A stretch of DNA of 64,000 nt from Gammaproteobacteria bacterium (lineage in GTDB: Bacteria; Pseudomonadota; Gammaproteobacteria; Eutrophobiales; Eutrophobiaceae), in contig CBDCTH010000004.1 of the NCBI GenBank assembly GCA_965222155.1, positions 512,001 through 576,000 of the forward strand. The letters run 5' to 3'. The position numbers were made by a program, and so were the translations under genes. The notes beneath the pieces are model-generated. The model was not told where the DNA came from and searched no databases. It was given only the letters and a program-made list of their open reading frames with translations. This document shows positions 2,404-62,529 of this stretch, one piece after another; within the stretch, counting starts at the first letter, position 1, and the number at the start of each line of letters is the position of its first letter.

Positions 2404-2526
2404 GCCACAGAGTACACCGAGTACACAGAGAAAAAAACAGGTAAACTCCAGCTTAATCGATCAACATTCAGGTTGCCCAGGTATCAGGAAGATGCTTTCT
2501 TCCTGGCGCAAGGTACTCTCTGTGGC
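2404..2526. repeat. 9-bp-period hairpin cassette (GCCACAGAG...CTCTGTGGC), copy 1
   Basis: GCCACAGAG-TACACCGAG-TACACAGAG left arm; GTACTCTCTGTGGC right arm. Confidence 0.75.
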
Positions 2527-2544
2527 ACACCAGAAAGATAATTA

Positions 2545-3705
2545 ATGAATACTTATGTTCAAATCATCGGCAACAGCCGGACCAGAATATGGGGGATGAC
2601 CGGCCGTGAACGGCTGGTGCGTATGTTGGATAAAATCGCCGGGGTGGAAATCATTAGCGAACAGGCAGACTTGCCGTCCGGCGCGCCTGTCATTTTTTTC
2701 AGGGGGGATTATATATACGATACCCGGGTTTTACAGGCAGTTATCGGCATGGACGGCGAGTTTGTATTATACCGGCAGGATGGCGCTACTGCCGTCGCAA
2801 TACGGGCAAACAACTATGACGTAAATATATTCGATCTTGACCATTACCCGGAAGCATTGGCAAAGGTAGCGCTAAATCACCTGGTCAACCCCTACAACGA
2901 TCAGTTGAAAAAATATGAGCAGGCCAAGGTTTGGCAGATTAGGCCGGACAACCGGGACTTTCTTGAGCAGGCGTTGTTCAGCGGTTCTTATAAAGGCGTA
3001 ACTGACCTGGTGACCAAATGGGTCTGGCCGTTACCGGCAAGATGGGCGACAAAATTCTGCACATGGCTTAAATTGAAACCGAACCATGTGACCTTATTCA
3101 GCCTGGTGCTGGCAATCCTGGCCGGTGTTGCCTTCTGGCATGGTGCATTCACCAGCGGCTTGTTGCTGGGCTGGTTCATGACCTTTCTGGATACCGTGGA
3201 CGGTAAGCTGGCCAGGGTGACGCTGACCTCAAGCCGTTTCGGCGACCTGCTGGACCATGGCCTGGACCTGATACATCCCCCGCTCTGGTATATCGCCTGG
3301 GGAGTGGGATTAACCGTTCAAGCGGCAGAGTTGATGTCATTGACGTTGCTGATCGGCCTGATATTTGCCGCTTACCTCGGCGGCCGGTTCTGTGAAGGGA
3401 TTTTTCAACATTTCATTGCCGGTTTCTCGATCTTCATGTGGCAGCCTGTTGATTCATTGAACCGGTTAATCACTGCCCGGCGTAATCCAAATTTGCTGAT
3501 ACTGACAGCCGGGGTGATAGCGGGACGACCTGACATGGGACTTGCGCTGGTCATCGCCTGGCATCTGCTATCCACTTTGTTCCTGATCATCAGGCTCGCC
3601 AACGCCTGGCAGGTGAGACAAAACCAGGGCTCACTGGTGAGTTGGCTGGAACGGGTCGGAGCGGAAGTCCGCCATAACAGAGTGGCCGTAAAGATATTCA
3701 CATGA
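2545..3705 (+). CDS. CDP-alcohol phosphatidyltransferase family protein with N-terminal extension
   Basis: Signature PNHVT...LDTVDGKLAR...SRFGDLLDHGLD. Confidence 0.9.
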   Translation: MNTYVQIIGNSRTRIWGMTGRERLVRMLDKIAGVEIISEQADLPSGAPVIFFRGDYIYDTRVLQAVIGMDGEFVLYRQDGATAVAIRANNYDVNIFDLDHYPEALAKVALNHLVNPYNDQLKKYEQAKVWQIRPDNRDFLEQALFSGSYKGVTDLVTKWVWPLPARWATKFCTWLKLKPNHVTLFSLVLAILAGVAFWHGAFTSGLLLGWFMTFLDTVDGKLARVTLTSSRFGDLLDHGLDLIHPPLWYIAWGVGLTVQAAELMSLTLLIGLIFAAYLGGRFCEGIFQHFIAGFSIFMWQPVDSLNRLITARRNPNLLILTAGVIAGRPDMGLALVIAWHLLSTLFLIIRLANAWQVRQNQGSLVSWLERVGAEVRHNRVAVKIFT

Positions 3706-4664
3706 GTCGGTTTTCAGGGCCGGACATAGCGCCGGCATTACTCGACGTCATCGCCCGACAGTGCGCCGAGCCCGTTCCGGAATCCTGTGCTGCCATCACC
3801 ACGGCAATCAGGGAATCCTACGGCGCTGCGCTTCAGGGAGTCCTGTTATACGGTTCCTGCTCAAGGGATGAGGCTATGGAAGACGGCATTGTTGATATTT
3901 ACGCCATCGTCGATGACTATAATTCTGTTTATGAAAAACGTTACCTGGCATACCTGAATGCCTGGTTGGCGCCTAACGTCTTTTATCAGGAAATCTCCGG
4001 CGAGCACGGTTTAATCAGGATTAAACTGGCGCTAATCAGCCTGGCGGATTTTACCGGTGGGATCATGAACTGGTTTCATTCCTACCTGTGGGGGCGGTTT
4101 GCCCAACCGGCGCGGATACTCTATACGCGTGATGAGACAGTGCGGCGCGCAATACACAAGCTCATGGCGCAGGCTGTGTTGACCCTGCTTGAGACATCGA
4201 TCCCAACCCTGCGGGAAGAGTCCGGGAATGCAGAATCAATCTGGACCCGGGCCTTGTCTTTATCCTATTCCGCGGAATATCGACCTGAACCCGGGGCCAA
4301 AGCCGGCCAGTTGGTCAGGTCCGATTTGGCCGCTTACGCCGGCCTGCTGGACGCTGCTTTACCCATGCTCGATACGATACTGCTTCGTCAAAACGAAGAT
4401 AATTATCTGCGCCTGAGTGATCACAGTACCATGAAGGCGGTGCTACGCCGCTGGCGTCTGCGGCGCTGGCAGGGACGCGTCCTGTCTGTCCTGAGGTTGA
4501 TGAAAGCGACCCTGACGTTTCAAAACGGTGTTGATTATGCCGCCTGGAAGATCAACCGGCATACCGGCGTCACGATTGAAGTCACCCCCGAACTGCGCCG
4601 CCATCCCCTGTTGTTCGGCTGGCGGGTATTCCGGCAATTGATAAAACGGGGCGTTATACATTAA
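3702..4664 (+). CDS. Nucleotidyltransferase-fold protein, Tam41/Mmp37-like putative cytidylyltransferase
   Basis: LLYGS...IVDIYAIVDDY pol-beta-type motif; SYLWGRFAQP and GVDYAAWKINRH resemble Tam41-like proteins; coupled to upstream gene (ATGA overlap). Confidence 0.65.
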   Translation: MSRFSGPDIAPALLDVIARQCAEPVPESCAAITTAIRESYGAALQGVLLYGSCSRDEAMEDGIVDIYAIVDDYNSVYEKRYLAYLNAWLAPNVFYQEISGEHGLIRIKLALISLADFTGGIMNWFHSYLWGRFAQPARILYTRDETVRRAIHKLMAQAVLTLLETSIPTLREESGNAESIWTRALSLSYSAEYRPEPGAKAGQLVRSDLAAYAGLLDAALPMLDTILLRQNEDNYLRLSDHSTMKAVLRRWRLRRWQGRVLSVLRLMKATLTFQNGVDYAAWKINRHTGVTIEVTPELRRHPLLFGWRVFRQLIKRGVIH

Positions 4665-4671
4665 ATATAGA

Positions 4672-4817
4672 GCCACAGAGGACACAGAGATCACAGGGTG
4701 GACCGAGAAGGCCGGCAGGCCTTTGTTTCATCCGCAGATGACGCAGACGACGCAGATTAGCACAGATTAAAACTTGTCTATTTATTTTTTCTCTGTGATC
4801 TCTGTGTCCTCTGTGGC
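4672..4817. repeat. 9-bp-period hairpin cassette, copy 2, with nested CGCAGA(T/C) array
   Basis: Perfect 25-bp IR GCCACAGAGGACACAGAGATCACAG; interior CCGCAGATGACGCAGACGACGCAGATTAGCACAGAT. Confidence 0.85.
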
Positions 4818-4873
4818 ATGACAAATCTATGCTAATCTGCAACAAAAAAGGGTTCTGGCCCATATCCTGAAAT

Positions 4874-5605: not shown

Positions 5606-5633
5606 TTTAAAGTTTTTAGTTATTAGTTTTTAG
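5603..5633 (+). repeat. 7-mer tandem array (TTTTTAG)x4, left arm of four-helix-bundle cassette
   Basis: TAG-TTTAAAG-TTTTTAG-TTATTAG-TTTTTAG. Confidence 0.8.
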
Positions 5634-5642
5634 TGTGAGGTA

Positions 5643-6011
5643 TTGAATATGGAGCATTCAAGAAGTTATCGGGACTTAATAGTATGGAAGAAATCGATCA
5701 ACCTGATTGGCAGAATTTATTCTTCTACATGCTGTTTTCCCAAGGAAGAGATGTATGGCATTACTTCTCAGCTCAGGCGGGCTGGGATTTCTATAGCAGC
5801 CAATATAGCAGAAGGACAGGCCAGAAACACCATCGGGGAGTTTCGGCAGTTTCTTGGAATAGCTCAAGGCTCATTGGCAGAGTTGGAGACATTACTCATA
5901 ATATCAGAGAATTTGGGTTATCTGAAAGCACAGGAAGCTGAAACCTTGCTGAACGGATGTGAAGAAATTGGCAAGTTATCAGCAGGCTTAAAAAAATCGC
6001 TAACCCACTGA
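5643..6011 (+). CDS. Four-helix-bundle protein (23S rRNA-IVS protein-like family)
   Basis: SYRDLIVWKKS...FPKEEMYGITSQLRRA..SIAANIAEG...FLGIAQGSLAELET; ATG at 5649 is the likely start. Confidence 0.92.
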   Translation: MNMEHSRSYRDLIVWKKSINLIGRIYSSTCCFPKEEMYGITSQLRRAGISIAANIAEGQARNTIGEFRQFLGIAQGSLAELETLLIISENLGYLKAQEAETLLNGCEEIGKLSAGLKKSLTH

Positions 6012-6020
6012 ATTATCAAT

Positions 6021-6062
6021 CTAAAAACCAAAAACTAAAAACCAAAAACTAGAAACTAAAAA
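6021..6062 (+). repeat. 7-mer tandem array (C(T/C)AAAAA)x6, right arm of four-helix-bundle cassette
   Basis: CTAAAAA-CCAAAAA-CTAAAAA-CCAAAAA-CTAGAAA-CTAAAAA, reverse complement of the left arm. Confidence 0.8.
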
Positions 6063-6993
6063 CAAACCGGAGAGTCGTTTCAGCCAGGTCAATCCTGTCC
6101 TGCATGGAGCGCATGATGGTATCAGTGACCTCCACCCTGACTCCCAGTTTTTCTATTTCTTCCGTTTCATGCTCGTCGATCCGGTCAATAATCAATCCGT
6201 CCAGGAAGTCGCGGTAATAGTCGGCGACTGACAGGTTGCTCGCCGGCATATTCAGTTCCTGCATGATCTTGGCCGCGGGGCCTCTCAGCGCGTTCCCCCC
6301 GATGATCGGGGAAACCGCGACAACAGGGGCGGCAACCGACTGCAGGATTGGGCGTATGTGTTTCAGGGACAGGATGGGGTCTATGCTGAGGAAAGGGTTC
6401 GACGGGCACAGGATGACAGCATCCAGGTCATTGGAGGTGAGCAGGCCGGCGAAATCCGGCTGGGCGCAGGCTATATCAGAACCGGCAAATTCGATTGATG
6501 CTACTTTGGGCTGACAACCCAGGCGTACGAAATAATCCTGGAAGGATAGCTTTCCCCGGTCAGTCACGATGAGCGTCCGCAACGGGTCATCGGTCATTGG
6601 AATGATCCTGTGTTTAATGCCGAATGAACGGCTGAGCGCCTGAGTAACCGCATCCAGCCCCAAACCCTGTTTCAATGCCCGGGTCCGGTATAAATGGGTA
6701 GCGAGGTCTTTGTCACCCAGGTTGAACCAAGCCGCCTGCTCAAAGCGGGAAATTGCCTCCATGAAACTCCAGGTTTCGCCGGCAAGTCCCCAGCCCCGGT
6801 CCCGGTCCGACACCTCAGCCAGCGTGTACATGACCGTATCCAGGTCAGGTGAGACATGCAGTCCCAGATGCTCGAAATCATCACCGGTATTGACGACAAT
6901 GACAAGGTCATCCGGCCCGACTACCTTGCTGAGACCGTGGGCAAGTTTCGCTCCACCCACGCCTCCGCACAGGGATAAAACGGTTTTATCCAT
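6049..6993 (-). CDS. cofD: 2-phospho-L-lactate transferase (F420 biosynthesis)
   Basis: GGVGGAKL, VNTGDDFEHLGLHVSPDLDTVMYTLA, FQDYFV, PSNPFLSI, GPAAKIM. Confidence 0.93.
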   Translation of the reverse strand: MDKTVLSLCGGVGGAKLAHGLSKVVGPDDLVIVVNTGDDFEHLGLHVSPDLDTVMYTLAEVSDRDRGWGLAGETWSFMEAISRFEQAAWFNLGDKDLATHLYRTRALKQGLGLDAVTQALSRSFGIKHRIIPMTDDPLRTLIVTDRGKLSFQDYFVRLGCQPKVASIEFAGSDIACAQPDFAGLLTSNDLDAVILCPSNPFLSIDPILSLKHIRPILQSVAAPVVAVSPIIGGNALRGPAAKIMQELNMPASNLSVADYYRDFLDGLIIDRIDEHETEEIEKLGVRVEVTDTIMRSMQDRIDLAETTLRFVFSF

Positions 6994-7061
6994 TGGAGAG
7001 ATAATCAATGTTTATCAAATAATAATAAAGATGTATTTTATACCAGCGAAATTCTCCCTGC

Positions 7062-7386: not shown

Positions 7387-7389
7387 TTC

Positions 7390-10066: not shown

Positions 10067-10073
10067 GTCATCG

Positions 10074-44700: not shown

Positions 44701-44718
44701 ATTGGAAAAGGGCTTTGA

Positions 44719-45735
<1,017 letters not shown>

Positions 45736-45744
45736 TAAATATGA

Positions 45745-45914
45745 GCCACAGAGGACTCAGAGGTAGTGGAGACAGGTTTGCATGAGCTTTTCAAGACCCG
45801 CTGTAAATACGTCCCTGTACGCTTACCATCCGCTGTCCCTGCGGATGATAGTCTTAAAAAGCTCATGCAAACCTGTCGGAGATATTATGGTGCAAACTCT
45901 GTGTCCTCTGTGGC
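45745..45914. repeat. 9-bp-period hairpin cassette, copy 3, with nested long hairpin 45771-45877
   Basis: GCCACAGAGGACTCAGAG...CTCTGTGTCCTCTGTGGC; inner GACAGGTTTGCATGAGCTTTT...AAAAGCTCATGCAAACCTGTC. Confidence 0.85.
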
Positions 45915-45927
45915 TAAATAGTCAAAT

Positions 45928-48360: not shown

Positions 48361-48361
48361 G

Positions 48362-49385: not shown

Positions 49386-49560
49386 GGAAACTCTGAACAA
49401 GTCCATTCCCGTATCAAGTACGGGACAGGCTCTGGACTTGTCAGAGCACGGAAAACAAAAATGCGATTTTTGTTTTCCTGACAAATTCAATGACTTTTTG
49501 TCATTGAATTTGGCGATACATCCCTGTATCGCAGGAACCTCTGACTTAATCAGAGGTTCC
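49386..49560. mobile_element. MITE with IS5-like ends, TTAA on both sides
   Basis: IR GGAAACTCTGAACAAGTC / GACTTAATCAGAGGTTCC (15/18); TTAA at 49382-49385 and 49561-49564; no transposase. Confidence 0.7.
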
Positions 49561-49574
49561 TTAAATAATACGGC

Positions 49575-49651
<77 letters not shown>

Positions 49652-49699
49652 ATTCACAGTTATACTTCGCTTTTCGGGAATTAAGAATACAAAATCAAG

Positions 49700-50236
49700 A
49701 TGCTGAAATCATCATTTCTCTTATTCATTTGCCTGGCCCTGTTAACCGCCGGGTGCGGTACGGAGAAGACCGCGCGCCAGGCATTTGAGGCTGGAGATTA
49801 CATAACCGCGTATAACCTGTTCAGGCCCAGAGCCGAGGCCGGCGATAGCGAGGCGCAAAATTACCTGGGCGTGCATTATTATCTGGGCCTGGGTGTAAAA
49901 CGGGATTGGCACCAGGCACTGCAATGGTATGATAAAGCGGCAAAACAGGGAGACCCCAAGGCTCAACTCAACTATGGCCTGATGTTCCATAACGCCTATG
50001 GTACGGACAAGGACATCGTTGCGGCTTTTATGTGGTATTACGCTTCCTACCGGCAGGGCAATGCGATTGCCGCGCGTTATATGAATTCTCTGGCGGCAGA
50101 TAACCTGCTGAGTCCGAACCAGATAAATTATGCCAAGCTCCAGGCAAAAAAATACATCACCAACCCCGTAGTTGCGGAGCAAGGCTCAGAAGGCAGATTG
50201 TTTCGCGGTCAGCAACAAACCGCGGTCAGCCCGTAA
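49700..50236 (+). CDS. Sel1-repeat lipoprotein
   Basis: Lipobox LTAGC; [16 protein letters not shown] and AQLNYGLMF repeats. Confidence 0.85.
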
Positions 50237-52065
50237 TGTGTGGTATTGTCGGCGCGGTTGCGGAAAGGGATGTTACGCCTATTTTGCTGGAAGGGTTGCG
50301 GCGCCTGGAATATCGTGGATACGATTCCGCCGGCATTGTAGTTGTCGATAAAACTGCCGGTTTCAATCGCCTGAGGGTCCAGGGTAAGGTCAATGTACTT
50401 GCCCAATCCGTCGGCGCATCATCGCTGCACGGCAAAACCGGTCTTGCCCATACCCGCTGGGCCACCCATGGCCGTCCCAGCGTCAATAATGCCCACCCCC
50501 ATATCTGTAAAGATGAAATTGCCCTGGTGCATAATGGCATTATTGAGAATCATGAAGCGCTCCGGACAGAACAGGCAGGCGCCGGCTACACGTTCGCATC
50601 GGAAACGGATACGGAGGTTGTCGTCAATCAGATTCATTACCACCTGCAGGGCAACGGAGACCTGCTCTCAGCGGTAAAAAACACCGTGGCGCAAATTGAG
50701 GGCACCTACGCACTGGGTGTAATCGACAGAAACCGACCGGAACGACTGGTAGCCGCAAGACAAGGCAGCCCCCTGGTTATCGGTGTGGGTATCGGTGAGC
50801 ATTTTATTGCTTCCGACGTCTTTGCCCTGTTACCGGTAACGCGGAAGTTTATTATTCTGGAAGAAGGAGACCTTGCCGAGGTCTGCAGGGACCGAGTAAC
50901 TGTTTATGACCGGGACGGCAACCCGGTGCGGCGTCCACTGGTTACCTCGGAACTTTCTCCGGACAGCGCCGATAAAACCGGTTATCGCCATTATATGGCA
51001 AAGGAAATATTCAACCAGCCGGTCGCTGTCGCTGACACCCTGGAAGGCAGGATTGATAACGGCGGAATTATCGAGTCTGAATTTGGCATGGCAGCCGCCG
51101 GTCTTTTCGACCGTGTGGAAAACATTCATATTATCGCCTGTGGCAGCAGTTACCACGCGGGGCTGATCGCCAGGTACTGGCTGGAAGCAGAGGGCATTCA
51201 GTGCAGTGTCGATATCGCCAGCGAATACCGCTATCGCAGCAGCGTAGTCCCGGCAAATACCTTGTTTCTGACAATTTCCCAATCGGGCGAAACCCTGGAT
51301 GTTCTCGAGGCCCTGCGGCTGGCCGGAACCCGACCTTATCTGGCGAGACTTGCAATCTGTAATGTTCCGGAAAGTTCATTGACGCGTGAGGCGGATATGG
51401 TTTTCCTCACCCGCGCCGGGATAGAAATCGGCGTCGCATCAACCAAGACGTTTACCACGCAGTTGGTTGCCCTGGTTATGCTGACGACCGTACTGGCGCG
51501 TCGGCGCGGATTGGATAAAGAGAAGGAATTGCGACTGGTCAACCAGTTGGAAAGATTGCCCGGCCAGATTAACCATGTACTTGAATTGGATGGGCGCCTG
51601 GAAAAACTGGCTGAGGAGTTCATCCACAAACAGCACACCTTGTTTCTGGGCAGGGGAATGATGCTGCCGGTTGCCATGGAGGGCGCGCTAAAACTGAAGG
51701 AAATTTCCTATATTCACGCAGAAGCCTACGCGGCAGGGGAATTGAAACACGGCCCCCTGGCGCTGATAGATGATGAAATGCCGGTCATTGCAGTTGCGCC
51801 GAACAACAGTTTACTTGGAAAATTAAACTCCAATTTACAGGAAGTCCGGGCCCGTGGCGCCAGGCTGTATGTATTTACAGACGCGGATATCGGTATGGAA
51901 ATGAGTTCCACCATTAAAGTCCTGCAGTTGTCGACAGTCGAAAACAGCATCGCACCGATTGTGTATACCGTGCCGTTGCAATTACTTTCCTACCACGTGG
52001 CAGTACTCAAGGGAGCTGATGTCGACCAGCCCAGGAACCTGGCCAAATCCGTAACGGTTGAATAA
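50236..52065 (+). CDS. glmS: Glutamine--fructose-6-phosphate aminotransferase
   Basis: MCGIVG, EYRGYDSAG, HTRWATHG, ELKHGP, PRNLAKSVTVE. Confidence 0.98.
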   Translation: MCGIVGAVAERDVTPILLEGLRRLEYRGYDSAGIVVVDKTAGFNRLRVQGKVNVLAQSVGASSLHGKTGLAHTRWATHGRPSVNNAHPHICKDEIALVHNGIIENHEALRTEQAGAGYTFASETDTEVVVNQIHYHLQGNGDLLSAVKNTVAQIEGTYALGVIDRNRPERLVAARQGSPLVIGVGIGEHFIASDVFALLPVTRKFIILEEGDLAEVCRDRVTVYDRDGNPVRRPLVTSELSPDSADKTGYRHYMAKEIFNQPVAVADTLEGRIDNGGIIESEFGMAAAGLFDRVENIHIIACGSSYHAGLIARYWLEAEGIQCSVDIASEYRYRSSVVPANTLFLTISQSGETLDVLEALRLAGTRPYLARLAICNVPESSLTREADMVFLTRAGIEIGVASTKTFTTQLVALVMLTTVLARRRGLDKEKELRLVNQLERLPGQINHVLELDGRLEKLAEEFIHKQHTLFLGRGMMLPVAMEGALKLKEISYIHAEAYAAGELKHGPLALIDDEMPVIAVAPNNSLLGKLNSNLQEVRARGARLYVFTDADIGMEMSSTIKVLQLSTVENSIAPIVYTVPLQLLSYHVAVLKGADVDQPRNLAKSVTVE

Positions 52066-52087
52066 TTGTATGCACAGGTTTTTTATT

Positions 52088-52201
52088 GCCACAGAGGACA
52101 CAAAGAAAAAATATCATGAAAACTGCTTCGGAAGAAATAACGAACACTGTGTTTCCCGGGATGTTGATTAAGCCCCCGGTTGACTCTGTGCCCTCTGTGG
52201 C
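52088..52201. repeat. 9-bp-period hairpin cassette, copy 4
   Basis: TATTGCCACAGAGGACACAAAG...CTCTGTGCCCTCTGTGGCAATA. Confidence 0.8.
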
Positions 52202-52219
52202 AATACTAATCCATGTCAG

Positions 52220-52798
52220 TTATCGGATTAACGCCTGAACTTCCTGAGATAGCTGCTCGTCCGCGCCGCGTACCCATTCAAACAACACGGACTCTGCATC
52301 GCAGATGATAATCCCCGCCCTTCCCAGGCGTCGTAATGCAGTTTCATAGTTTTCCCTTTGCCGGGAACATACCGCATCCGCTACCACAAAAACCGTGTAG
52401 CCCCGGTTATGCAGGTCAAGCGCGGTTTGTAATACACAAACATGTGCTTCCATGCCGACCAGTATGGCCTGCTTCCTCCTTGTTGAGGTCAAATCAGCGG
52501 CAAAATTGTCGGCGCCCGTGCAGGAAAACGCGGTTTTTTCATACAGTTTTGCCGTCGGTGGTAACAACTTCCGGATTTCCAGTTCCATATTGCCCAGCCC
52601 ATCGGGAGATCGTTCCGTAGCAAAAACCGGGAGCGCCAGCTTAATGGCCGTATTAACCAGCAACCATGTATTTCTTTGCAGCCTCGCCAGTACCTTGGCC
52701 GGCATGACGGCGGTTAATTCCGTCTGTATGTCAATAATGACCAATACGGAATTTCCGGCGTCACAAAGTGATGTGTAGTTTTCATCGGTAGCTGTCAT
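52220..52798 (-). CDS. Isochorismatase-family hydrolase
   Basis: IIDIQ, KTAFSC, GMEAHVCVLQT, VADAVCSR. Confidence 0.9.
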   Translation of the reverse strand: MTATDENYTSLCDAGNSVLVIIDIQTELTAVMPAKVLARLQRNTWLLVNTAIKLALPVFATERSPDGLGNMELEIRKLLPPTAKLYEKTAFSCTGADNFAADLTSTRRKQAILVGMEAHVCVLQTALDLHNRGYTVFVVADAVCSRQRENYETALRRLGRAGIIICDAESVLFEWVRGADEQLSQEVQALIR

Positions 52799-52823
52799 GA
52801 TCGTTATCCAGGCTGCTATCGTG

Positions 52824-54149
52824 TCAGTCCAGCCAACGGTTCACCTGGGACAGGTCGTCCACCGACAGGCTGCCCGAAGCCTGCTTCAGGCGTAAGCTAT
52901 CCAGCAGGTAATCATAACGGGCGCGGGCATAATCCCGTCTGGCCTGAGAGGTAGCCTGTTCCGCCGCGACGACATCCACCGCAGTGCGCGTCCCGACCTC
53001 AAAGCCGGCCTCAGTAGCTTCCAATGCAGTCTCACTGGAGATCACGGCCTGGTTCAAGGCATTGACCCGGCTTATTCCGGAAATAACACCCAGGTATGCC
53101 TGCCGCGTCATGCGTTGTGCGTTTCTGCGTGCCTGTTCCAGCCGTTCCAGTTCTGCGTTGAGACGTTCATGGGTTTCCCGTACTCGCGAACTTACGAACC
53201 CTCCCTGGAACAGCGGAACGTTGACCTGTACGCCTATTGAATTTATCGTATTTTCATAAGAACCAAAACGCCCTCCGGCACTGTCCAAACTATGCCGGGC
53301 AACCATATCTACGCTGGGAAGGTGGCCCGCGCGTTGCTTTTGCACTTCCCGGCGGGCGCTGTCCACGGCATGCTGTACAGCCAGCACATTCAGGTTTTGC
53401 TCCAGCGCAGCGCCGGTCCAGGTCTCGATTTCCTCAGGTTCCGGGCTTACCAGGGGCATGGTTTCTCCCAGCAATGCCAGGTCGGATAAATAGACGCCGG
53501 TGATCTCGCGCAATGCTTCCTGGGCATTATCAACATTGTTGCGCGCGGCTATTTCCGCGGCAAATGCCCGATCGTAGCCTGCCTGGGCTTCCTGTACGTC
53601 GGTAGTGGCGCTGAGTCCCACTTCAAAACGTTGTTTTGCCTGGTCCAGTTGCCGACTCAGGGATTTTTTTTCGGCTTCTGCAAATCCCAGGTTGTCATAA
53701 GCGGCCAATACCTCGAAATAAGCAGCGGTAGTGCGCACAATCAAATCCTGCCGGGCTGCGATCAATTCCGCGTCTGCCTGTTTTATCAGGTTATCCGCTT
53801 GCAGGTAGCCGATGATGCGGTCACCACTGAACAACGGTTGAGTCAGGTTCAGGCTGTAGCCGTGGCTGTCGTAGCTCACTTTGCCGGGCCTGTCTATGGG
53901 ATTGAACTCAGAGGTGATATCTTCTTCATTTTTAAAGGCGTTAGCGCTGAATGTAAGTGTTGGCAGGAGTTGTGCCAGAGCCTGGGGGCGTTGCTCCAGG
54001 ACCGCGCGTTGTGTTGCGGCCACCTGCCGGTATTGCGGGTCGCTATCCAGGGCATATGCGTAGATTTCGAGTAAATCTGCCGCGTAAGCGATGTCCATGC
54101 AGATAAACAGGAAAATGACATTCAGGAGTTTACGGCAGGCTACTCTCAT
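52824..54149 (-). CDS. tolC: TolC-family outer-membrane channel
   Basis: Signal peptide, ADLLEIY, RFEVGL, GHLPSV, GFEVGTRTAVDV, ARYDYL. Confidence 0.9.
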   Translation of the reverse strand: MRVACRKLLNVIFLFICMDIAYAADLLEIYAYALDSDPQYRQVAATQRAVLEQRPQALAQLLPTLTFSANAFKNEEDITSEFNPIDRPGKVSYDSHGYSLNLTQPLFSGDRIIGYLQADNLIKQADAELIAARQDLIVRTTAAYFEVLAAYDNLGFAEAEKKSLSRQLDQAKQRFEVGLSATTDVQEAQAGYDRAFAAEIAARNNVDNAQEALREITGVYLSDLALLGETMPLVSPEPEEIETWTGAALEQNLNVLAVQHAVDSARREVQKQRAGHLPSVDMVARHSLDSAGGRFGSYENTINSIGVQVNVPLFQGGFVSSRVRETHERLNAELERLEQARRNAQRMTRQAYLGVISGISRVNALNQAVISSETALEATEAGFEVGTRTAVDVVAAEQATSQARRDYARARYDYLLDSLRLKQASGSLSVDDLSQVNRWLD

Positions 54150-54192
54150 GTTGTGTACTTTAGGGTTTCAGTTTGATAAGTGAGGGGATGTT

Positions 54193-56456
<2,264 letters not shown>

Positions 56457-56543
56457 GATAAGGGGATAGATTTGTTTTTATTTCAATAGATACTTGCAAA
56501 CAGGTAGGCAATTTATGTATAGGGTCAGCAAGCAGATGCAAGT

Positions 56544-56639
56544 CGTCATTCCGGCGCATGCCGGAATCCAGTGGATAAAGTCTCCTTTCATTATAATGAA
56601 TTTTCTAGTGACTGGATTCCGGCATGCGCCGGAATGACG
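56544..56639. repeat. REP-like doublet hairpin
   Basis: CGTCATTCCGGCGCATGCCGGAATCCAGT...ACTGGATTCCGGCATGCGCCGGAATGACG; spacer shares TTATAATGAAT with the 7211-7302 copy. Confidence 0.88.
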
Positions 56640-56712
56640 GCAGTGCATTCACCGGCATGAGAACGGGTTTGCATTTCGTTGAGGTTTGCCGGAAGCTGTC
56701 CCAGTCCCTCCA

Positions 56713-59328
56713 ATGACAGACTTCCAACCACTGATTGCGGCAGCGCCTGACCCCGAGGTTGCCGCACTCAGGTTTGATCGACTGCGGGAAGATGATGCCC
56801 TGCGCAAGGAACTGGATCTGCTGCCGGAATCCCGTGCGGCCGATTTCGTCAATATTATTGGTTATTCAGCCTTCCTGTTTAATTATATCTGCCGCAATCC
56901 GCAAACCATTCGCCTGCTGGGCGAACCTTGTGAAATCACTCCCGAACAACTGGACGGCATCCACGACCCTGAAGCCTTGCGGCGTTTCAAGTATGAGCAG
57001 TTGTTGAAAATAACCTGGATGGATGTATCGGGTCGTTATCCTTACGAAATTATTCTGGATCGGCTGAGCCTGCTGGCTGATTACATTCTCAGGAAGGTAT
57101 TTGCCCTTAGCTTCAGCACGGCTGATAAAAATGATCCGGGTAAATACATCAGTATTTTTGCGTTGGGGAAACTGGGAGCAGGCGAACTGAATTACAGTTC
57201 CGACGTAGACCTGATCTTTGTCGGCGGCAATCACGATGGAACCAGCGGATTGAAGCCACACGAATTACAGGGCGCGTTGACAAAAGGACTGAGGCAGTTC
57301 ACCAGAATGCTGGAGCAAACCACCCATAGCGGGTTTTTATACCGGGTTGACCTGAAACTCCGACCCTGGGGGAAAAGCGGACCGCTGTTTCTGTCCGTGG
57401 ACGAGACAGAGAATTATTACCAGGCCAGTACCGAGGCCTGGGAACGGCTGGCGTGGTTACGCGCCAGGTGCGTGGCGGGCAATGCAGACCTCGGCGAGGA
57501 ACTCCTTACCCGGTTGCGTCCCTTTGTCTTCATACGCTCCATGAGCAGCGCGGACCTGGAGCGGTTTGTCGCCATCAAGGGAGAAATGGCCAGGGTCCGG
57601 GCGCGCACTGGTCAATGGCATGTCAAGCTGGGTCGGGGCGGCATCAGGGACATTGAGTTCTTTGTCCAGATACTGCAACTGGTCAGCGCCGCAAAGCACG
57701 CCGAGTTGCGAACAACCAATACCCTGACGGTGCTGGAGAGCTTGCGCAAGCTGAACTTTATAGGAAGGGAGGAAGAACAGGAAATCAGGACCGCCTACCT
57801 GTTTTTGCGGCGCCTGGAAAACCGCCTGCAGATGGCGGATGAGAAACAGGTCCATGCTTTGCCGGATGACGCAGCAGGCAGGATACGAGTAGCGCGTTCC
57901 CTGAACATGGAAGGCCTGTCCGATGATGAAATTCTGGCAAATTTTGAACAATGCCTTAACGCCAACCGCAAGATAGCTGAAAACTATTTTGAAAAAATTC
58001 TGCCGGAGGCCGGGGATGACGGCGCGGGGACGGGTAATGAACCTCGCTTCACATTTGCAGGCGCCTGGAATAAGGTTCAGGCAGAGGTCAGTTTCACCCG
58101 CTGGACCGAATTATGCGAGAAGGAAAAATGGGGCGACAGACCGGCGAACAAAAACCTGATTATCAATATTTTCGGCGCAAGCTGGTATTTCACCCGATAT
58201 GTTTTTTTCCGAGGATATGAAATAACCGAGTTGATCGACCATTACCGGGATAAATCCATCAACGCTGATGAGATGATGCGGACGTTACAGGTGGACGCGT
58301 TCAAACAGGATGTTGAACTAGGGCTGAACGTTCTGTCATCAATAAAAAATCAATGGATGCTGTTGCTGCTCATTCGTTTTTTACTGGGAGAGATGGCGCT
58401 CGTGGAAGTGGAAAAAAACCTGACCCTGCTGGCAGAATGTGTTTTCAGCGCCATGATCAGGCATATGCACAAGGCCAACCGGCAGTTGTTTGACAACGTG
58501 GCGGTTCTGGGCATGGGCAGGATGGCAGGGTATGAGATGATATTCGGTTCCGATCTCGACCTGATATTCCTGTACCGGCCAAAATCCAGCGGAGATACCA
58601 CCCAGGCAGCACGTGAACTTCAGGGTTTAATGCGTCACCTGGCCAGGATATCCCCTGCCGGTCTGCTGTATGAAGTGGATATGCGTTTGCGGCCCCATGG
58701 CACATCCGGCTCACTGGTCACGCCAGTGGATTCCTTTATCGACTATCACCACTCTGAGCGCGCGGTCTGGGAGCGACAGATGATGACTCGCTGCCGGCCT
58801 ATCTATGATCCGCAAAACATGGGTATGGAGGCGTTGCAGGCGATCTCAGGCTCCATCTATGGAGGCCACGACATGGAATTGTTACAGGATGAAATTGTGA
58901 AAATGCGCGAACTGATAGAGGAGACACTGGGCAGCCCGCGCAATAAGCATGAAATAAAACGCGGCAAAGGCGGGATCATGGATATTGATTTTATTACACA
59001 TTTTCTGCAATTAAGTCATGGCGACAAACATGCTGCATTGCAAACGACAAGCACCCGAACGGCGCTAAACCGCTTGTCTGAACTGAATTACATTGACACA
59101 GACACCGCCGGGTTTTTATTGATGGCGTATAACTACCTGAAGAAAGCGGAAATCTGTATGCGCTTGATAGATTTGAAACCCAGCAGCACAATTCCGGCCG
59201 ACCATATACAAAATGCGGTACTGTCCAGGGGCATGGGCTTCGAGGATGGCCAGACCAGGGAATTTATGGAGGAATTTGTTGCGATCAGGGCAAAGGTCAG
59301 GGAAGCGTTTATTCGACTTGTTAGGTAA
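56713..59328 (+). CDS. glnE: Bifunctional glutamine synthetase adenylyltransferase/deadenylase
   Basis: Two nucleotidyltransferase domains: LGKLGAGELNYSSDVDL and MGRMAGYEMIFGSDLDL, each followed by VDxxLRP and GGIxDI. Confidence 0.85.
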   Translation: MTDFQPLIAAAPDPEVAALRFDRLREDDALRKELDLLPESRAADFVNIIGYSAFLFNYICRNPQTIRLLGEPCEITPEQLDGIHDPEALRRFKYEQLLKITWMDVSGRYPYEIILDRLSLLADYILRKVFALSFSTADKNDPGKYISIFALGKLGAGELNYSSDVDLIFVGGNHDGTSGLKPHELQGALTKGLRQFTRMLEQTTHSGFLYRVDLKLRPWGKSGPLFLSVDETENYYQASTEAWERLAWLRARCVAGNADLGEELLTRLRPFVFIRSMSSADLERFVAIKGEMARVRARTGQWHVKLGRGGIRDIEFFVQILQLVSAAKHAELRTTNTLTVLESLRKLNFIGREEEQEIRTAYLFLRRLENRLQMADEKQVHALPDDAAGRIRVARSLNMEGLSDDEILANFEQCLNANRKIAENYFEKILPEAGDDGAGTGNEPRFTFAGAWNKVQAEVSFTRWTELCEKEKWGDRPANKNLIINIFGASWYFTRYVFFRGYEITELIDHYRDKSINADEMMRTLQVDAFKQDVELGLNVLSSIKNQWMLLLLIRFLLGEMALVEVEKNLTLLAECVFSAMIRHMHKANRQLFDNVAVLGMGRMAGYEMIFGSDLDLIFLYRPKSSGDTTQAARELQGLMRHLARISPAGLLYEVDMRLRPHGTSGSLVTPVDSFIDYHHSERAVWERQMMTRCRPIYDPQNMGMEALQAISGSIYGGHDMELLQDEIVKMRELIEETLGSPRNKHEIKRGKGGIMDIDFITHFLQLSHGDKHAALQTTSTRTALNRLSELNYIDTDTAGFLLMAYNYLKKAEICMRLIDLKPSSTIPADHIQNAVLSRGMGFEDGQTREFMEEFVAIRAKVREAFIRLVR

Positions 59329-59336
59329 GTATTCTG

Positions 59337-59477
59337 GCCACAAAGGGCACAGAGTACACAGAGTGGGCTTGTAAAGCGATTATATAGACCTATAGGACTG
59401 AAACAGAGCCCGTTACAGCGGACCTAAACCGGACTATATAGCAGGCATTAAACCTTGATCTCTGTGTCCTCTGCGGC
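59337..59477. repeat. 9-bp-period hairpin cassette, copy 5
   Basis: GCCACAAAGGGCACAGAGTACACAGAG...CTCTGTGTCCTCTGCGGC between convergent stop codons. Confidence 0.8.
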
Positions 59478-59484
59478 TTTAACC

Positions 59485-60483
59485 TTAAATCGGTTCGCAC
59501 GGGAAGAACTTCTCCTCCGGTATGTATGAAAGCAGGGTATTCCTGCAAAAAGATAATAAATCGTCACGCAGGGTCTCCCGGTATGTGACCATACCGTCAC
59601 CGGTTTCCTGCAGTGGTGAAGCGAACAGGACCTCTTCCGGGTAGAGGCGCGACAGGGTCTGATAAAATGATTTGGGTAGACGAAAACTCCCCAGGCTGAC
59701 CGAGTGGAGCAACGCCGTATCGATGTGTTTGAATACCTGCTCGAACAACTTCTCATATTGTTCCATTACCCCTTCCTGATAAATCAGCGGGTCGAAACGC
59801 AGCCCGATTTGCCAGCCGTGCGCCTGTAGTCGTTGCAGCGCTTGCAGCCGTTTACTCACCGGGGGTGTTTTATATTCAATGGCCGCGGCGATTTCAGCCG
59901 GCGTAAAACTGTAGGCGATAATACAATTGGGCGCCGGTTCTTGAGCCAGTAACGAACGGATTTGGGTACTCTTGGTACGTAATTCCAGCAAGGCCCGGGG
60001 ATATGTCCTGAATACGGGTAGAAATTCCTTCACAAAGTCCGTTATGGGTTCTAACGCGAGGCTGTCGCAGTCATAACCGGAAAAGAAATGGATCGAGGCG
60101 TTGTCTGCCGCCCGGATCTTTTCTGTGATGGCCTGGATAAAATCCTCATAGTTCACGAATATGACGTAATGCGCCGAGCGGTACATGCCCTGCAGGAAAC
60201 AGTATCGGCAGTCATAGATGCAGTTCAGCATATGGGAGAAATAATAATTCCGGTCTCCCCCGATGGCGTACTCGGGCGGGGAAGGCAGCACGTGGTTTGC
60301 AAACTTCTCGGCCAGGATCAACGCCGGCTTGATTTTCTGCAGGCGAAAGTTCTGTGCCCTGCGGTTAAAAATTTCGCCGTAACGCGTGCATTCCGTTACT
60401 GTCGCGTCCGGGAATTTCTGCATAATTGCACGCGCCCGGGGGTGCTCAAGCAGGGCTTCCTCAATGTAAATCTGATCTATCAT
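59485..60483 (-). CDS. Spore-photoproduct-lyase-like radical SAM protein
   Basis: NCIYDCRYCFLQG (CxxxCxxC), DSLALE, LELRTKS, GLRFDP. Confidence 0.85.
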   Translation of the reverse strand: MIDQIYIEEALLEHPRARAIMQKFPDATVTECTRYGEIFNRRAQNFRLQKIKPALILAEKFANHVLPSPPEYAIGGDRNYYFSHMLNCIYDCRYCFLQGMYRSAHYVIFVNYEDFIQAITEKIRAADNASIHFFSGYDCDSLALEPITDFVKEFLPVFRTYPRALLELRTKSTQIRSLLAQEPAPNCIIAYSFTPAEIAAAIEYKTPPVSKRLQALQRLQAHGWQIGLRFDPLIYQEGVMEQYEKLFEQVFKHIDTALLHSVSLGSFRLPKSFYQTLSRLYPEEVLFASPLQETGDGMVTYRETLRDDLLSFCRNTLLSYIPEEKFFPCEPI

Positions 60484-60736
60484 TGCTCTTTATTATAAGC
60501 CACAGAGTACACAGAGAGCACAGCGCGCGATAGTGCATGCCTTCGGCCCGTCATACCGGCGCATGCCGGTATCCAGTCGACAAGACAATCCCTTGCTCTT
60601 TATTATAAGCCACAGAGTACACAGAGAGCACAGCGCGTGATAGTGCATGGCTTCGGCCCGTCATACCGGCGCATGCCGGTATCCAGTAAACAACTTTTTC
60701 CTTTATGTTGTCGGTGCCCTTTGTGCCCTCTGTGGC
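60483..60736. repeat. 9-bp-period cassette, copy 6, with 110-bp-period duplication carrying REP halves
   Basis: TTGCTCTTTATTATAAGCCACAGAGTACACAGAG...GTCATACCGGCGCATGCCGGTATCCAGT at 60483 and 60593; right arm ends at 60736. Confidence 0.88.
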
Positions 60737-60737
60737 T

Positions 60738-61550
60738 TTAACGGAACTTGATGGGGGCCTTGTCCAGTTCGTCACGCAGGAATTTAAGGACTTCCCTGGC
60801 GGAGTTCTGCCCGGCCAGGCGCCCGGCCAATCCCGTATCTCCGGGATAAAGTGCTTGCCATTTTCTGAGCGCAGCCTGTAACTGGTGTTGCCGGCTGACA
60901 CTGAAATGACGCTCCTTGATGATTGCATGGTAGTTCGGGCCCGGGTCGTTAAGCCGCTGTTGCAGTGCCGTGAGTGAAAGCAGTTGCCGAATGATGTCTT
61001 CAACCACAGGCAGGTTTTGCATCATCAAGCGGCTGATGAGCTTTGGGTCGACGCCCTCCATGGGCTGGTCGGCATTATCTGAGATAATCTTCACTGCCTG
61101 TACCAATTCCAGGGTCGCAAATCCGGTTACGGCCTGAAAATATCCCGCGCCTTCCATGTCGAATAATTCGCTTCGATATTCGCTGCCGGGTTGCTCCAGA
61201 GTGATCAGGTCGTGGGCAGGCAGTGTTGTGTCAAAAACGCGGGACGGAAACCAGGTCTGTCCGGAACCGGCATCGGTTATCTTTTTTATGATGACCGCCT
61301 GGCCGAGCGGCAAGCTTGCATGACCGGCAATGCCCAGGTTAAGCCAGGCGTGTGACCTGCCGGCCTTGTAATGATCGCGGGTACGGGTCACTGCCGCCGC
61401 CGCCGCGGGTTTGCCGATACCTGAGATGGTGAGTGTGATTTGCCCGTCCGGATTCCGGTAGATTGGAACCCTGCCGGCCAGTGGCTGCATGGCAAAATAA
61501 TCCAGCAATGGCCGGGCCTCAGGTTTCAGGGCACAGATTATGTGGAGCAT
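60738..61550 (-). CDS. Nucleoside phosphorylase/nucleosidase-like protein
   Basis: ALKPEA, TISGIG, NLGIAG, DMEGAG, KIISD (PNP_UDP_1-like). Confidence 0.75.
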   Translation of the reverse strand: MLHIICALKPEARPLLDYFAMQPLAGRVPIYRNPDGQITLTISGIGKPAAAAAVTRTRDHYKAGRSHAWLNLGIAGHASLPLGQAVIIKKITDAGSGQTWFPSRVFDTTLPAHDLITLEQPGSEYRSELFDMEGAGYFQAVTGFATLELVQAVKIISDNADQPMEGVDPKLISRLMMQNLPVVEDIIRQLLSLTALQQRLNDPGPNYHAIIKERHFSVSRQHQLQAALRKWQALYPGDTGLAGRLAGQNSAREVLKFLRDELDKAPIKFR

Positions 61551-62374
61551 TGACCCGCGTAGTGGGCCAGCAACTGTTCACATTCGGCGACATATATCCG
61601 ATTGTTGTATTTTCTGGCGCCGTTTAAATATATCCCGACCTTACTGACCAGTGTGTCTATCGCTGCTTTCCTGTCGGACGTTTCCAGTTCCACTTCATTG
61701 AGAATTCTGTCTATCGACCTGATCCGGTAGCGGTCCATTCCCCAATAGCGGGTTGAGAGTTGGTCACTGTGCCCGCCGTACTTGGTAATCAGGGGTTCAT
61801 GGATAAATAATACCGGCATCCGGGCACAGATGCGCAGCCATAAGTCGTAATCCTCACAAGCCGGCAGCGTTTCATCGAACAGGCCGACCTGTTCGAATAC
61901 GCTCCGGTGAATGATGACGGATGAAGGGGAGATGACGCAAAGAGGCAGACAATATTTGAATATTGAACCACCGTATTTCCGGTGCTTGCGCTGCGGGTTT
62001 ATACGGACGCCGTTACGTATCCATATTTCATCAGTGTGAATGACATTACTGCCGGGAGATTTCTCAATAAGTTGTACCTGCCGCCCCAACTTGCCGGGAG
62101 ACCAGGTATCGTCTGAATCAAGAAACGCCAGCCAATCACCTTTTGCTGCGCGTATACCTGCATTCCTGGCCGCGCTTACCCCCTTGTTTGTCTGCGAGAT
62201 TAAATTTATCCCGGGATAGTCCCGTTGCGCCAGGGACCGGGTCGCGTCGGTGGAACCGTCATCGACGACAATGATTTCAATAGGTGCATAGTTCTGGGAG
62301 ACAACCGAATTCAGGCACCTGGGTAACAGGTGGGCGCGGTTATAACTGGGGATGATAACGCTTACAGATTTCAT
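61538..62374 (-). CDS. GT2 glycosyltransferase
   Basis: SVIIPSYNR, VVDDGSTD, GVSAARNAG, FLDSDD, CEDYDLWLR. Confidence 0.92.
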   Translation of the reverse strand: MKSVSVIIPSYNRAHLLPRCLNSVVSQNYAPIEIIVVDDGSTDATRSLAQRDYPGINLISQTNKGVSAARNAGIRAAKGDWLAFLDSDDTWSPGKLGRQVQLIEKSPGSNVIHTDEIWIRNGVRINPQRKHRKYGGSIFKYCLPLCVISPSSVIIHRSVFEQVGLFDETLPACEDYDLWLRICARMPVLFIHEPLITKYGGHSDQLSTRYWGMDRYRIRSIDRILNEVELETSDRKAAIDTLVSKVGIYLNGARKYNNRIYVAECEQLLAHYAGQCST

Positions 62375-62392
62375 GTGTCTGACGTAGTATAA

Positions 62393-62529
62393 GCCACAGA
62401 GGGCATAGAGATCACAGAGTCCGGTTTAGAGGGTTTTTTAATATGTCCCTGATGGAACATAATCACGAAGAATGCCCGTATATTAAAAAAGCCTTCAATC
62501 CACTCTGTGATCTCTATGCCCTCTGTGGC
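62393..62529. repeat. 9-bp-period hairpin cassette, copy 7
   Basis: Perfect 28-bp IR GCCACAGAGGGCATAGAGATCACAGAGT. Confidence 0.9.

Follow-up and report, generated by a model that had tools for sequence, protein, structure and literature searches.

Small hairpins with tandem CACAGAG arms in a gammaproteobacterial genome and their likely kinship with cassettes carrying GxxExxY genes

The CACAGAG hairpin family

What are the seven small hairpins dispersed between the genes of a 64,000-nucleotide stretch of gammaproteobacterial DNA (C4:512001-576000, denominated here the window), and from which genetic element do they derive? All seven sites feature inverted arms of the heptamer CACAGAG repeated in tandem, closed by a (G/A)CC terminus. 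They begin with GCCACAGAG, followed by one to two NN-CACAGAG units, and end with the reverse complement, CTCTGTG-NN...CTCTGTGGC. On balance the hairpins are likely to be old gene-less remnants of a cassette descended from a form carrying a gene of the GxxExxY family, in a package which would have included arms recognized by a protein.

The source genome (G000) measures 4.55 Mb and is split in 12 contigs. Defining as an arm two or more CACAGAG units at exact 9-bp spacing, 114 arms were identified in it, 58 on the plus and 56 on the minus strand. Six shuffled 7-mers yielded 1-11 arms each, and the reversed motif none. Within the window the heptamer is found 30 times, against 5.6 expected and a maximum of 12 in 100 shuffles. 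The original prediction, made from the letters of the window alone, had described hairpins with 9-bp-periodic arms, and these are real, as all seven sites could be read and the genomic count of arms far exceeds the 0-11 of the controls. Convergent arms form 45 pairs, spaced by 54-373 bp in 44 cases. The 45th pair, in which the arms are 4360 bp apart and enclose ordinary genes, is better read as two half elements. A one-unit partner lies close to 8 further arms. The working set consists of 52 paired elements (104 ends), ranging in size from 58 to 377 bp, and a plausible gene is found inside none of them.

The sequence logo of the 104 ends has a near-invariant terminus, GCCACAGAG-G(A/G)-CACAGAG, in which the third unit is weaker. 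Termini and the first two heptamers are more than 90% invariant; spacers are variable, the dinucleotide being GA at 50 ends, GG at 26, AA at 11, and others at the rest. The outer edge is T-rich. T is found at positions -4 and -3 in 64-68 of the 104 ends; positions -2 and -1 are occupied by A or T. The two arms of an element are commonly unequal in length, with unit numbers such as 3/1, 5/2 and 15/3. The last figure refers to a locus outside the window (C12:1138332-1138464), at which a left arm expanded to 15 tandem units, CACAGAG and TACAGAG mixed, is opposed to a right arm of 3. In this respect the arms resemble minisatellites. Elements are moreover clustered along the genome (median gap on contig C12 of 20.9 kb, against 65 kb for random positions), and the window, which hosts seven, is one of several clusters.

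Genome-wide data on spacers rest on crude gene calls based on open reading frames (ORFs). By these, 41 of the 52 elements are cleanly intergenic, located at a median distance of 18-19 nt from the flanking ORFs, and occupy a median 74% of the spacer. The spacers are of tandem type in 29 cases, convergent in 7 and divergent in 5, which denotes no clear preference over the background (1566, 495 and 529, respectively). In the window, the distances from the ends of flanking ORFs are, for copies 1 to 7, 38/18, 7/56, 9/13, 22/18, 8/7, 15/1 and 18/13 nt; hence 12 of the 14 ends fall in the range of 1-22 nt which had been proposed for most of them. The 14 genes adjoining the window copies belong to ordinary Pfam families (pheS/pheT, glmS-like, glnE-like, CofD-family, SDR, and others). 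No transposase is encoded by any of these 14, and the earlier statement that the window lacks transposases holds to this extent, the genes checked being these neighbours plus the Y1 transposase genes of the whole genome. At the gathering score, Rfam models identified in the window five tRNAs and no other family.

Insertion of the elements has left no consistent target duplication, as had been noted for the seven copies. Among the 52 elements, direct repeats of 2 nt flank 5 (8.0 in shuffled partners), repeats of 3 nt flank 3 (3.8 in shuffled partners), repeats of 4 nt flank 3 (1.1 in shuffled partners, with 98 of 1000 shuffles as high), and repeats of 5 nt flank none. Complementary flanks of 4 nt are marginally in excess (6 versus 2.65; 35 of 1000 shuffles as high). 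The interiors had been described as unrelated to each other. This is correct for 24 singletons; the other 28 of the 52 fall into six small similarity clusters, of 9, 6, 4, 4, 3 and 2 members. An additional arm-like unit is found in the outer flanks of 11 of the 104 ends in the same orientation as the arm, and of 1 in the opposite one, against 1.9 expected, and therefore cassettes sit concentrically within one another.

Cassettes carrying a gene

Arms of this type enclose a gene in other species of the genus. At locus L009 of the congener G019, arms of sequence GCCACAGAGGACACAGAG(TT/AT)CACAGAG, identical to those of the window, flank a GxxExxY ORF of 120 amino acids (TIGR04256, 133 bits). A second such gene, scoring 149 bits on TIGR04256, is found at locus L015 of the congener G006 within arms of the ACC-terminus variant. 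In these cassettes a T-rich edge precedes GCCACAGAG and 1-4 NN-CACAGAG units, then comes a GxxExxY gene of about 120 codons, and a mirror-image arm closes the structure. The gene starts a few bases after the last unit, and its stop codon falls within, or next to, the first unit of the arm that follows. Packing is extreme in L009, where the last arm unit provides the GAGG found just before the ATG, and the TGA stop is formed by the first unit of the opposite arm. The arm pattern GCCACAGAGNNCACAGAG is present in 19 of 22 congeners, with 1-216 matches and the highest number in G019; three of the 22 have no match. It was found neither in 2 other genera of the family nor in 17 other families of the class, and a control pattern gave no match anywhere.

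GxxExxY genes are widespread, and similarly arranged. A profile search, restricted to one genome per species, retrieved 567 relatives, of which the best 80 were analysed, a choice favouring relatives of the L009 protein. At 29 of the 80 loci, two or more inward-reading CACAGAG-like units were found on both sides of the gene; the outward strands of the same 80 loci, and 74 far flanks, gave none. A flanking inverted repeat exceeding the 95th percentile of controls is present at 67 of the 80, and the layout of the cassette is uniform across the analysed loci. In a FastTree tree of 86 proteins (3 rows with internal stops were excluded; the columns are few and many forks weak), all 30 genes with CACAGAG arms fall in one clade of 40 members (support 94), which spans at least 13 phyla. 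Arms of GATT type characterise another clade, rich in Bacteroidota, and the CGCAGAT and ACAGGAT types are each found in a further clade. The tree requires 5 changes of arm type (16-18 in the five shuffles printed) and 28 of host phylum. Arm type tracks the protein clade, not the host, and proteins only 45-70% identical share heptamer and GCC terminus in at least 13 phyla.

Five unrelated genomes hosting such cassettes contain 8-258 arm matches, mostly organized as short convergent pairs (the control gave 0), and the family therefore generally gives rise to gene-less derivatives. Copies number about 50 in G000; a congener has up to about 100 of them, and a Burkholderiales genome, unrelated to these, about 130. 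At least 144 stretches of viral contigs include the 16-base arm pattern, a good share of which could, by a rough estimate, be due to chance. A GxxExxY gene was found in none of 80 fetched viral loci, and a convergent arm pair in 10 of them, so these loci provide no evidence of phage carriage of the full cassette.

Traces of the gene have been searched for in the gene-less copies of G000. The last 30 nt or so of the L009 ORF, reading inward from the arm, are kept at 5-6 of the 104 ends, as measured by end-anchored local alignment, with scores of 10-15 (shuffled sequences have a 99th percentile of 9 and a maximum of 11). One of these remnants adjoins the right arm of copy 5 of the window (...GGCATTAAACCTTGATCTCTGTG), and scores 15 against the null maximum of 11. 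In six-frame translations, a remnant of the C-terminal peptide exceeds the threshold of the profile search in 2 of the 52 elements. The better of the two scores 7.7 bits and covers 28 residues (profile positions 84-111), the shuffled maximum being 5.7. Of the sub-terminal motifs designated 'A', 'B' and 'C', the last alone can be securely identified as a 3' remnant; for the other two, inspection by eye did not distinguish between the 5' and the 3' end. Exactly one 'A-type' end is found in 21 of the 52 elements, and two in none. Elements are therefore polar, as a gene remnant would make them. Short-word blastn of the interiors against those of L009 and L015 gave only matches of 10-11 nt, at chance level. 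The link between arms and GxxExxY genes, which had been put forward in the original prediction, is thus borne out by the two congeneric loci, by the 29 loci described above and by the 3'-end remnants, and it is very probable that the gene-less elements descend from a nuclease cassette.

The nature of the encoded protein has been approached by modelling. A sequence search of the PDB with the cargo profile gave 0 matches. The AlphaFold2 model, built from 40 sequences, has a pLDDT (predicted local distance difference test) of 95.6, and its structural neighbours are Cas4 SSO0001, the nuclease domain of BpuSI, NucS, Hjc and a XisH-like protein, a generic PD-(D/E)XK assortment. The best Foldseek E value is 1.8e-3; VIA-align Z scores are 6-8, with a best of 8.1, a range commonly seen according to the notes of the tool. 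As fold searches returned only generic PD-(D/E)XK neighbours, no specific enzyme type can be named. Residues D64, E74 and K76, and the G-x-x-E-x-x-Y motif, are invariant in the 40 sequences. The predicted structure shows the cargo as a minimal PD-(D/E)XK nuclease fold with an intact catalytic triad, and says nothing on the substrate. The family, PF13366, figures as 'Unknown' in a section of the 2012 survey of the superfamily (PMC3424549).

The window copies, their turnover and competing explanations

Both G019 (about 92% identity) and the congener G014 (about 86%) are collinear with the window, and relatives 86-92% identical have been used for comparison. Copies are described without strand. 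Copy 1 (2404..2526) has a left arm of 3 units and a right arm reduced to 1, which in the G019 orthologue still numbers 3. It is located between divergent genes, encoding a metallophosphoesterase (start at 2365) and a CDP-alcohol phosphatidyltransferase-like protein (start at 2545). Copy 2 (4672..4817, 3+3 units) separates two same-strand genes. Its interior includes, at 4728-4770, a solo left arm of the CGCAGAT family, and the matching reverse arm is found just outside, at 4823-4842; the resulting order, C-left, Q-left, C-right, Q-right, corresponds to two hairpin families which are interleaved, not nested. At this site in G019 the whole block of about 210 bp is missing, and 2 nt separate the stop of the upstream gene from the ATG of the next. 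Copy 3 (45745..45914) is inserted between pheS and pheT, and its interior is another palindromic small repeat (AGACCCGCTGT...GGATGATAG). The same repeat (45772-45885; core AGACCCGCTGT..CCATCCGCTGTCCCTGCGGATGATAG) occupies the copy-6 spacer in six other congeneric species (loci L020-L023, L026 and L028). Copy 3 is present with a different interior in G019, and missing in G014, in which 5 nt separate the pheS stop from the pheT ATG.

Copy 4 (52088..52201, 2+2 units) lies between convergent glmS-like and isochorismatase-family genes; the G019 orthologue has 3+3 units and an interior 82% identical. Copy 5 (59337..59477) lies between convergent glnE-like and SPL-family genes. In G019 its arms and right sub-terminal part are the same and the interior is different; the site is empty in G014, G015, G016, G020 and G022. 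Copy 6 (60499..60736), between two minus-strand genes, contains a palindrome (ATACCGGCGCATGCCGGTAT) resembling repetitive extragenic palindromic (REP) sequences. Its 110-bp left half is duplicated in tandem (60499-60608 and 60609-60718), which results in two left arms, at 60499 and 60609. The copy is single in G019; in G014 arms and interior are inverted in place, and the flanks are unchanged. Copy 7 (62393..62529, 3+3 units) fills most of a divergent spacer, between a glycosyltransferase start at 62374 and the ATG of an SDR gene at 62543. Its second unit is CATAGAG in both arms, as originally observed, and the double change is derived, because the G019 orthologue has CACAGAG in both. The site is empty in G001, G011, G018 and G020, hosts the right arm alone in G015, G016 and G022, and is occupied in G002 by a cargo-less TTTTTAG/CTAAAAA hairpin. 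The divergent start codons are only about 40 bp apart in four congeners, and in G000 the gap is filled by the 137-bp hairpin. A TATACT box is found directly outside each GCC terminus of copy 7, 7-11 nt before each start codon, and the promoters of both genes must therefore overlap the element or its edges.

Summing the comparisons by copy, those shared with G019 are copies 1 and 4, with homologous interiors, copy 6, and copies 3, 5 and 7, with the interior partly or wholly replaced. The last three are missing in G014. In other congeners the same spacers are occupied by small repeats of unrelated sequence, or by a hairpin whose arms belong to another family. At the genome level, the comparison involved the first 2.09 Mb of the 3.47-Mb G019 genome, which include 53 elements. 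At the corresponding sites of G000 an element is found in 15 cases, one arm in 4, and nothing in 26, and no call could be made for 8. Conversely, of the 52 elements of G000, 13 are present in the fetched part of G019, 1 is reduced to one arm, 9 are missing, and 29 gave no call, 27 of these having no flank match, partly since 40% of the G019 genome was not fetched. The check by presence and absence in relatives, which had been proposed at the outset, revealed differences between the two species at over half of the sites. The 13 shared elements have the same orientation in 7 cases and an inverted one in 1; interiors are replaced or unalignable in 4, and one element is too short to tell. A comparable flip was noted for a four-helix-bundle gene flanked by AATTACG/AATTAGG arrays, located at the same site in G006 (L029) and G014 (L030), in which the whole interior is reversed between the arms.

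Six orthologous G000/G019 pairs could be compared base by base. Differences are found at 10 of 203 heptamer positions (4.9%), at 13 of 34 spacer positions, and at 84 of 404 aligned interior positions (21%), the latter being a lower bound because poorly alignable interiors are included. The rate of change in heptamers is hence about a quarter of that in interiors, an indication that they are recognized by their sequence. The number of units varies between orthologous copies (1 versus 3, 2 versus 3, 2 versus 4). At the copy-7 site the right arm is still perfect in species whose identity is down to 77-78%. Possible reasons for which heptamers are kept while their surroundings drift, even where the cognate gene is missing, are recognition by a protein, a role at the level of the host, and concerted evolution.

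How the elements have spread we infer by analogy, taking as a model REPINs, the hairpins formed by two REP sequences, and RAYTs, the REP-associated tyrosine transposases. A protein acting in trans would recognize the heptamers, and the most plausible candidate is the nuclease of the cassette itself. The nuclease would spread cassettes and deletion derivatives alike, in a role comparable to that of RAYT transposases for REPINs, and inverted arms might then drive local rearrangements such as flips, deletions and swaps of the interior. That the nuclease mobilised the cassettes is proposed tentatively. Still more speculative is a wider view, by which GxxExxY proteins would be the enzymes of hairpin cassettes moving across phyla. 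The nuclease would read heptamer arrays specific to its clade and cut at the GCC terminus, perhaps on extruded hairpins, and would insert, flip or excise itself along with hundreds of gene-less derivatives with no DDE, HUH, serine or tyrosine recombinase involved; four-helix cassettes and rRNA intervening sequences would be sister branches.

Several findings weigh against descent from, and mobilisation by, such a cassette. The GxxExxY genes of G000 are flanked by CGCAGAT or ACAGGAT arms, and the largest hairpin family of the genome is thus left with no cognate gene; G002, with 77 arm matches, has only a gene fragment, associated with another arm type. Remnants of the ORF are recognisable in a minority of copies only, and its 5' end matches none of the 104 ends. 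Close copies (at least 90% identity over 80% of the length) were found in none of the 1326 pairs of elements in G000 and none of the 1378 in G019; 80% identity is reached by 8 and 7 pairs, respectively, and the maximum is 85%. The expectation that young copies accompany the cognate gene failed in G019, which has that gene. No clean empty/filled junction was found among relatives 86-92% identical, filled sites having extra A/T-rich bases. Similarly, no excision junction was found in the public contigs of four runs covering positions 44500-64000 of the window. Contigs of these runs break at the elements, and in one, about 95% alike, the interior and right part of copy 5 are replaced by 55 other letters. 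We know of no biochemistry for the GxxExxY nuclease family. Finally, conservation of the heptamers at vertically inherited sites is hard to explain by selfish spread alone, and fits a host-level role or gene conversion too. The G000 family looks like an old population, with neither cognate gene nor recent copying, in which heptamers are still intact.

Other explanations have to be set against this reading. The elements could act in RNA, like the intervening sequences (IVS) of 23S rRNA. RNase III would cut the transcribed stem, the insert would be removed or the flanking messages separated or stabilised, and arms would be kept since an unprocessed insert is harmful. Arms do pair together in the minimum-energy fold of 40 of the 52 elements (DNA parameters), and 37% of 46 interiors, folded alone, are well beyond shuffles. 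Elements fill most of their spacers, close to the ends of ORFs and even inside the pheS-pheT operon, and must therefore be co-transcribed; the cassettes are too compact to include their own promoter. A precedent is offered by the Coxiella IVS, whose 28-bp stem, with variable GACAGAT heptamers, is cut by RNase III (PMC4990558). Selection on a stem should have produced compensatory changes, yet the two arms share the dinucleotide of the first spacer in 18 of 52 elements (15.7 in shuffled partners) and of the second in 9 of 52 (8.6). Many heptamers have one deviating base, and the deviation is common to both arms in copy 7 only, 1 element in 52. Covariation of the arms as a general feature is to be rejected, as spacers are no more alike than in shuffled partners, and with it goes the suggestion, made originally from copy 7, that arms are homogenised or selected for pairing. 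As covariation is absent, what is constrained is the sequence of the heptamer and not its pairing. Arm lengths often unequal, and a heptamer kept across phyla together with the protein clade, similarly speak for recognition which is sequence-specific and not merely structural. Nor does the 23S rRNA gene of G000 (L123, C12:1664485-1668657) host a hairpin cassette. Its 4173 bp, against the 2925 positions of the model, include a group I intron (Rfam RF00028, 55 bits) with a 160-codon LAGLIDADG-type ORF. For these reasons a role in RNA seems unlikely.

Two explanations dispense with a nuclease acting on the arms. The elements may have been adopted by the host, as REP-like extragenic repeats in which the arrays serve as binding sites for a host protein, as terminators or as protectors of mRNA ends, the link to GxxExxY being only historical. 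Heptamers conserved in place (4.9% change against 21% in interiors), the perfect right arm at the copy-7 site in distant species, the lack of young copies in both genomes, and persistence of the population without its cognate gene would all agree with adoption. Yet there is no bias towards 3' ends, and the genes on either side of copies 1 and 7 start divergently. Two congeners disagree at more than half of the sites, three of 22 congeners lack arms, and the same spacer is filled in other species by unrelated repeats. In scattered phyla the motif goes with the cassette gene and not with the host lineage. Adoption is on the whole improbable. The elements could also be dead relics, the heptamers being kept alike by concerted evolution, through slippage within the tandem arrays and through gene conversion, which could involve over 100 arms and also operate between the two of a single element. 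Unit numbers that change between orthologues, the 15-unit arm, the derived change shared by the two arms of copy 7, and the clustering on contig C12 are all as expected from such processes. Slippage would, however, homogenise spacers too, and neighbouring spacers differ, with position-specific preferences; conversion within a genome cannot produce the same heptamer and GCC terminus alongside proteins 45-70% identical in at least 13 phyla. Relics evolving only in concert are accordingly very unlikely. Remnants of a GxxExxY cassette, with arms made to be recognized by a protein, are the reading retained here.

Related repeats, known systems and significance

Searching the G000 genome for both suspected cargo families retrieved three GxxExxY genes (PF13366), one of which frameshifted, and one four-helix-bundle gene (PF05635), located in the window. 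All four are wrapped in inverted arms of short tandem units, none of which CACAGAG; the arm types are CGCAGAT and ACAGGAT, both at 9-10 bp spacing, and TTTTTAG/CTAAAAA, at 7-8 bp. The window gene (ORF 5649-6011, PF05635 / TIGR02436, '23S rRNA IVS protein') is part of a 7-mer element located at 5606..6063 on the plus strand, with arms of TTTTTAG type at 5606-5634 and of CTAAAAA(C) type at 6021-6063. The element has the same build as the CACAGAG cassettes, with cargo of another family and other arms. The original view of the seven hairpins as emptied derivatives of the same cassette class as this element needs to be amended in this sense; they are cargo-less relatives of a gene-carrying class, and the 7-mer element differs in cargo and arms. 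It follows the stop codon of a gene of the Asp/Asn beta-hydroxylase family. In G019 it is missing, 27 other bp are found in its place, and the upstream gene ends two codons later.

Additional repeats have been noted in the window. A REP-like inverted doublet (GTCGTCATTCCGGCGCATGCCGGAATCC ... mirror) is located at 56540-56650, in the spacer preceding the glnE-like gene, and the same site is occupied in G019 by a 208-bp CACAGAG element. The doublet is very abundant in the sampled runs, since public contigs pile up on it (summed depth of 1800-2500, against about 20-100 nearby). A small element with terminal inverted repeats of about 25 bp (CCGGATTTCTCACCAG...) spans positions 49001-49240. By eye, the CACAGAG element at C12:784380-784756 has this same sequence as its interior, and a 43-codon ORF is common to the two. 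The 2005-codon ORF at 35290-41307, which contains about eight tandem 588-bp repeats, recognizable from shadow ORFs recurring every 588 bp, probably encodes a giant repeat surface protein; the matching array of G014 is shorter, with a step of about 426 bp.

Among known systems, REPINs and RAYTs are the closest in apparent working, and ORF-bearing rRNA IVS the closest in build. Like REPINs, as these are presented in three abstracts (PMC3337134, PMC3116915 and bioRxiv 10.1101/2022.05.22.493013), the hairpins are gene-less two-arm structures found by tens to hundreds in gene spacers. The enzyme gene is present in 0-3 copies flanked by the same arms, elements persist for long at orthologous sites, and different arm types go with different enzyme clades. 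The differences are marked. The associated gene encodes a GxxExxY protein of about 120 amino acids with a PD-(D/E)XK fold, in place of a Y1/HUH transposase; arms are tandem 7-mer arrays at 8-9-bp spacing, in place of one imperfect palindrome; no abundant identical 'master' copy is found. The pattern across phyla, moreover, implies transfer, whereas the REPIN-RAYT abstracts describe mostly vertical descent. Three PF01797 (Y1_Tnp) genes are encoded by G000, and the 3.2-3.3-kb loci around them contain 1, 0 and 0 single CACAGAG words and no arm, so the hairpins are not members of the RAYT/REP group.

The IVS of Coxiella burnetii 23S rRNA carries an S23p ORF and has a 28-bp terminal stem with tandem GACAGAT heptamers, the number of which varies among strains; RNase III cuts within the stem, and origin and mobility are left open (PMC4990558). 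The 23S_rRNA_IVP ORFs are also reported from rRNA insertions of bacteria of the candidate phyla radiation (CPR; bioRxiv 10.1101/2024.02.27.582315). IVS and cassettes have in common a small ORF inside terminal inverted repeats forming a long stem, and variable-number heptamers in the arm, and the window cassette at 5606-6063 encodes the very same protein family, PF05635. The seven hairpins differ in that they lack an ORF and are located in spacers between protein-coding genes, not in rRNA, and their gene-bearing relatives carry GxxExxY and not S23p; dispersed gene-less copies are not described in the IVS passages of PMC4990558 and bioRxiv 10.1101/2024.02.27.582315. The location excludes the seven copies from the IVS, and the 23S rRNA gene of G000 is enlarged by the group I intron.

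Miniature inverted-repeat transposable elements (MITEs) are small, intergenic, non-coding sequences with terminal inverted repeats, derived from a gene-bearing element by internal deletion. The hairpins resemble them in all these respects, and differ since they lack a target-site duplication, copies are at most 85% identical, and largely unrelated interiors are enclosed by near-invariant arms. To our knowledge, the hairpins have not been associated with any transposase of the DDE, serine or tyrosine type. With neither target duplications nor close copies, and no transposase beside the window copies, they cannot be classified as MITEs. Integron attC sites have conserved ends and a variable middle; the analogy was discarded, as the cargo is here inside the arms and no integrase is found beside any copy examined.

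A published description of GxxExxY cassettes, or of their gene-less copies, was not found in the literature searched, mostly non-subscription. The 16-mer of the arm does not figure in text among the matches listed, and the matches listed for a 9-mer are unrelated, of primer type. In the reading retained here, the cassette class is a widespread kind of selfish DNA.

Small hairpins are common in bacterial spacers, and most are unexplained. An abundant family of such repeats is now tied to a specific, uncharacterised gene family (GxxExxY / PF13366). Occurrence of the same heptamer from Acidobacteriota to Pseudomonadota, tracking the protein clade, makes the existence of a nuclease specific for heptamer arrays a testable hypothesis. 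The shared design may offer a route to the origin of rRNA intervening sequences. Caution is needed in annotation, as the elements break short-read assemblies, sit in operons such as pheST, and flip or swap their interiors between species; for the same reasons the hairpins matter for the reading of promoter and terminator regions.

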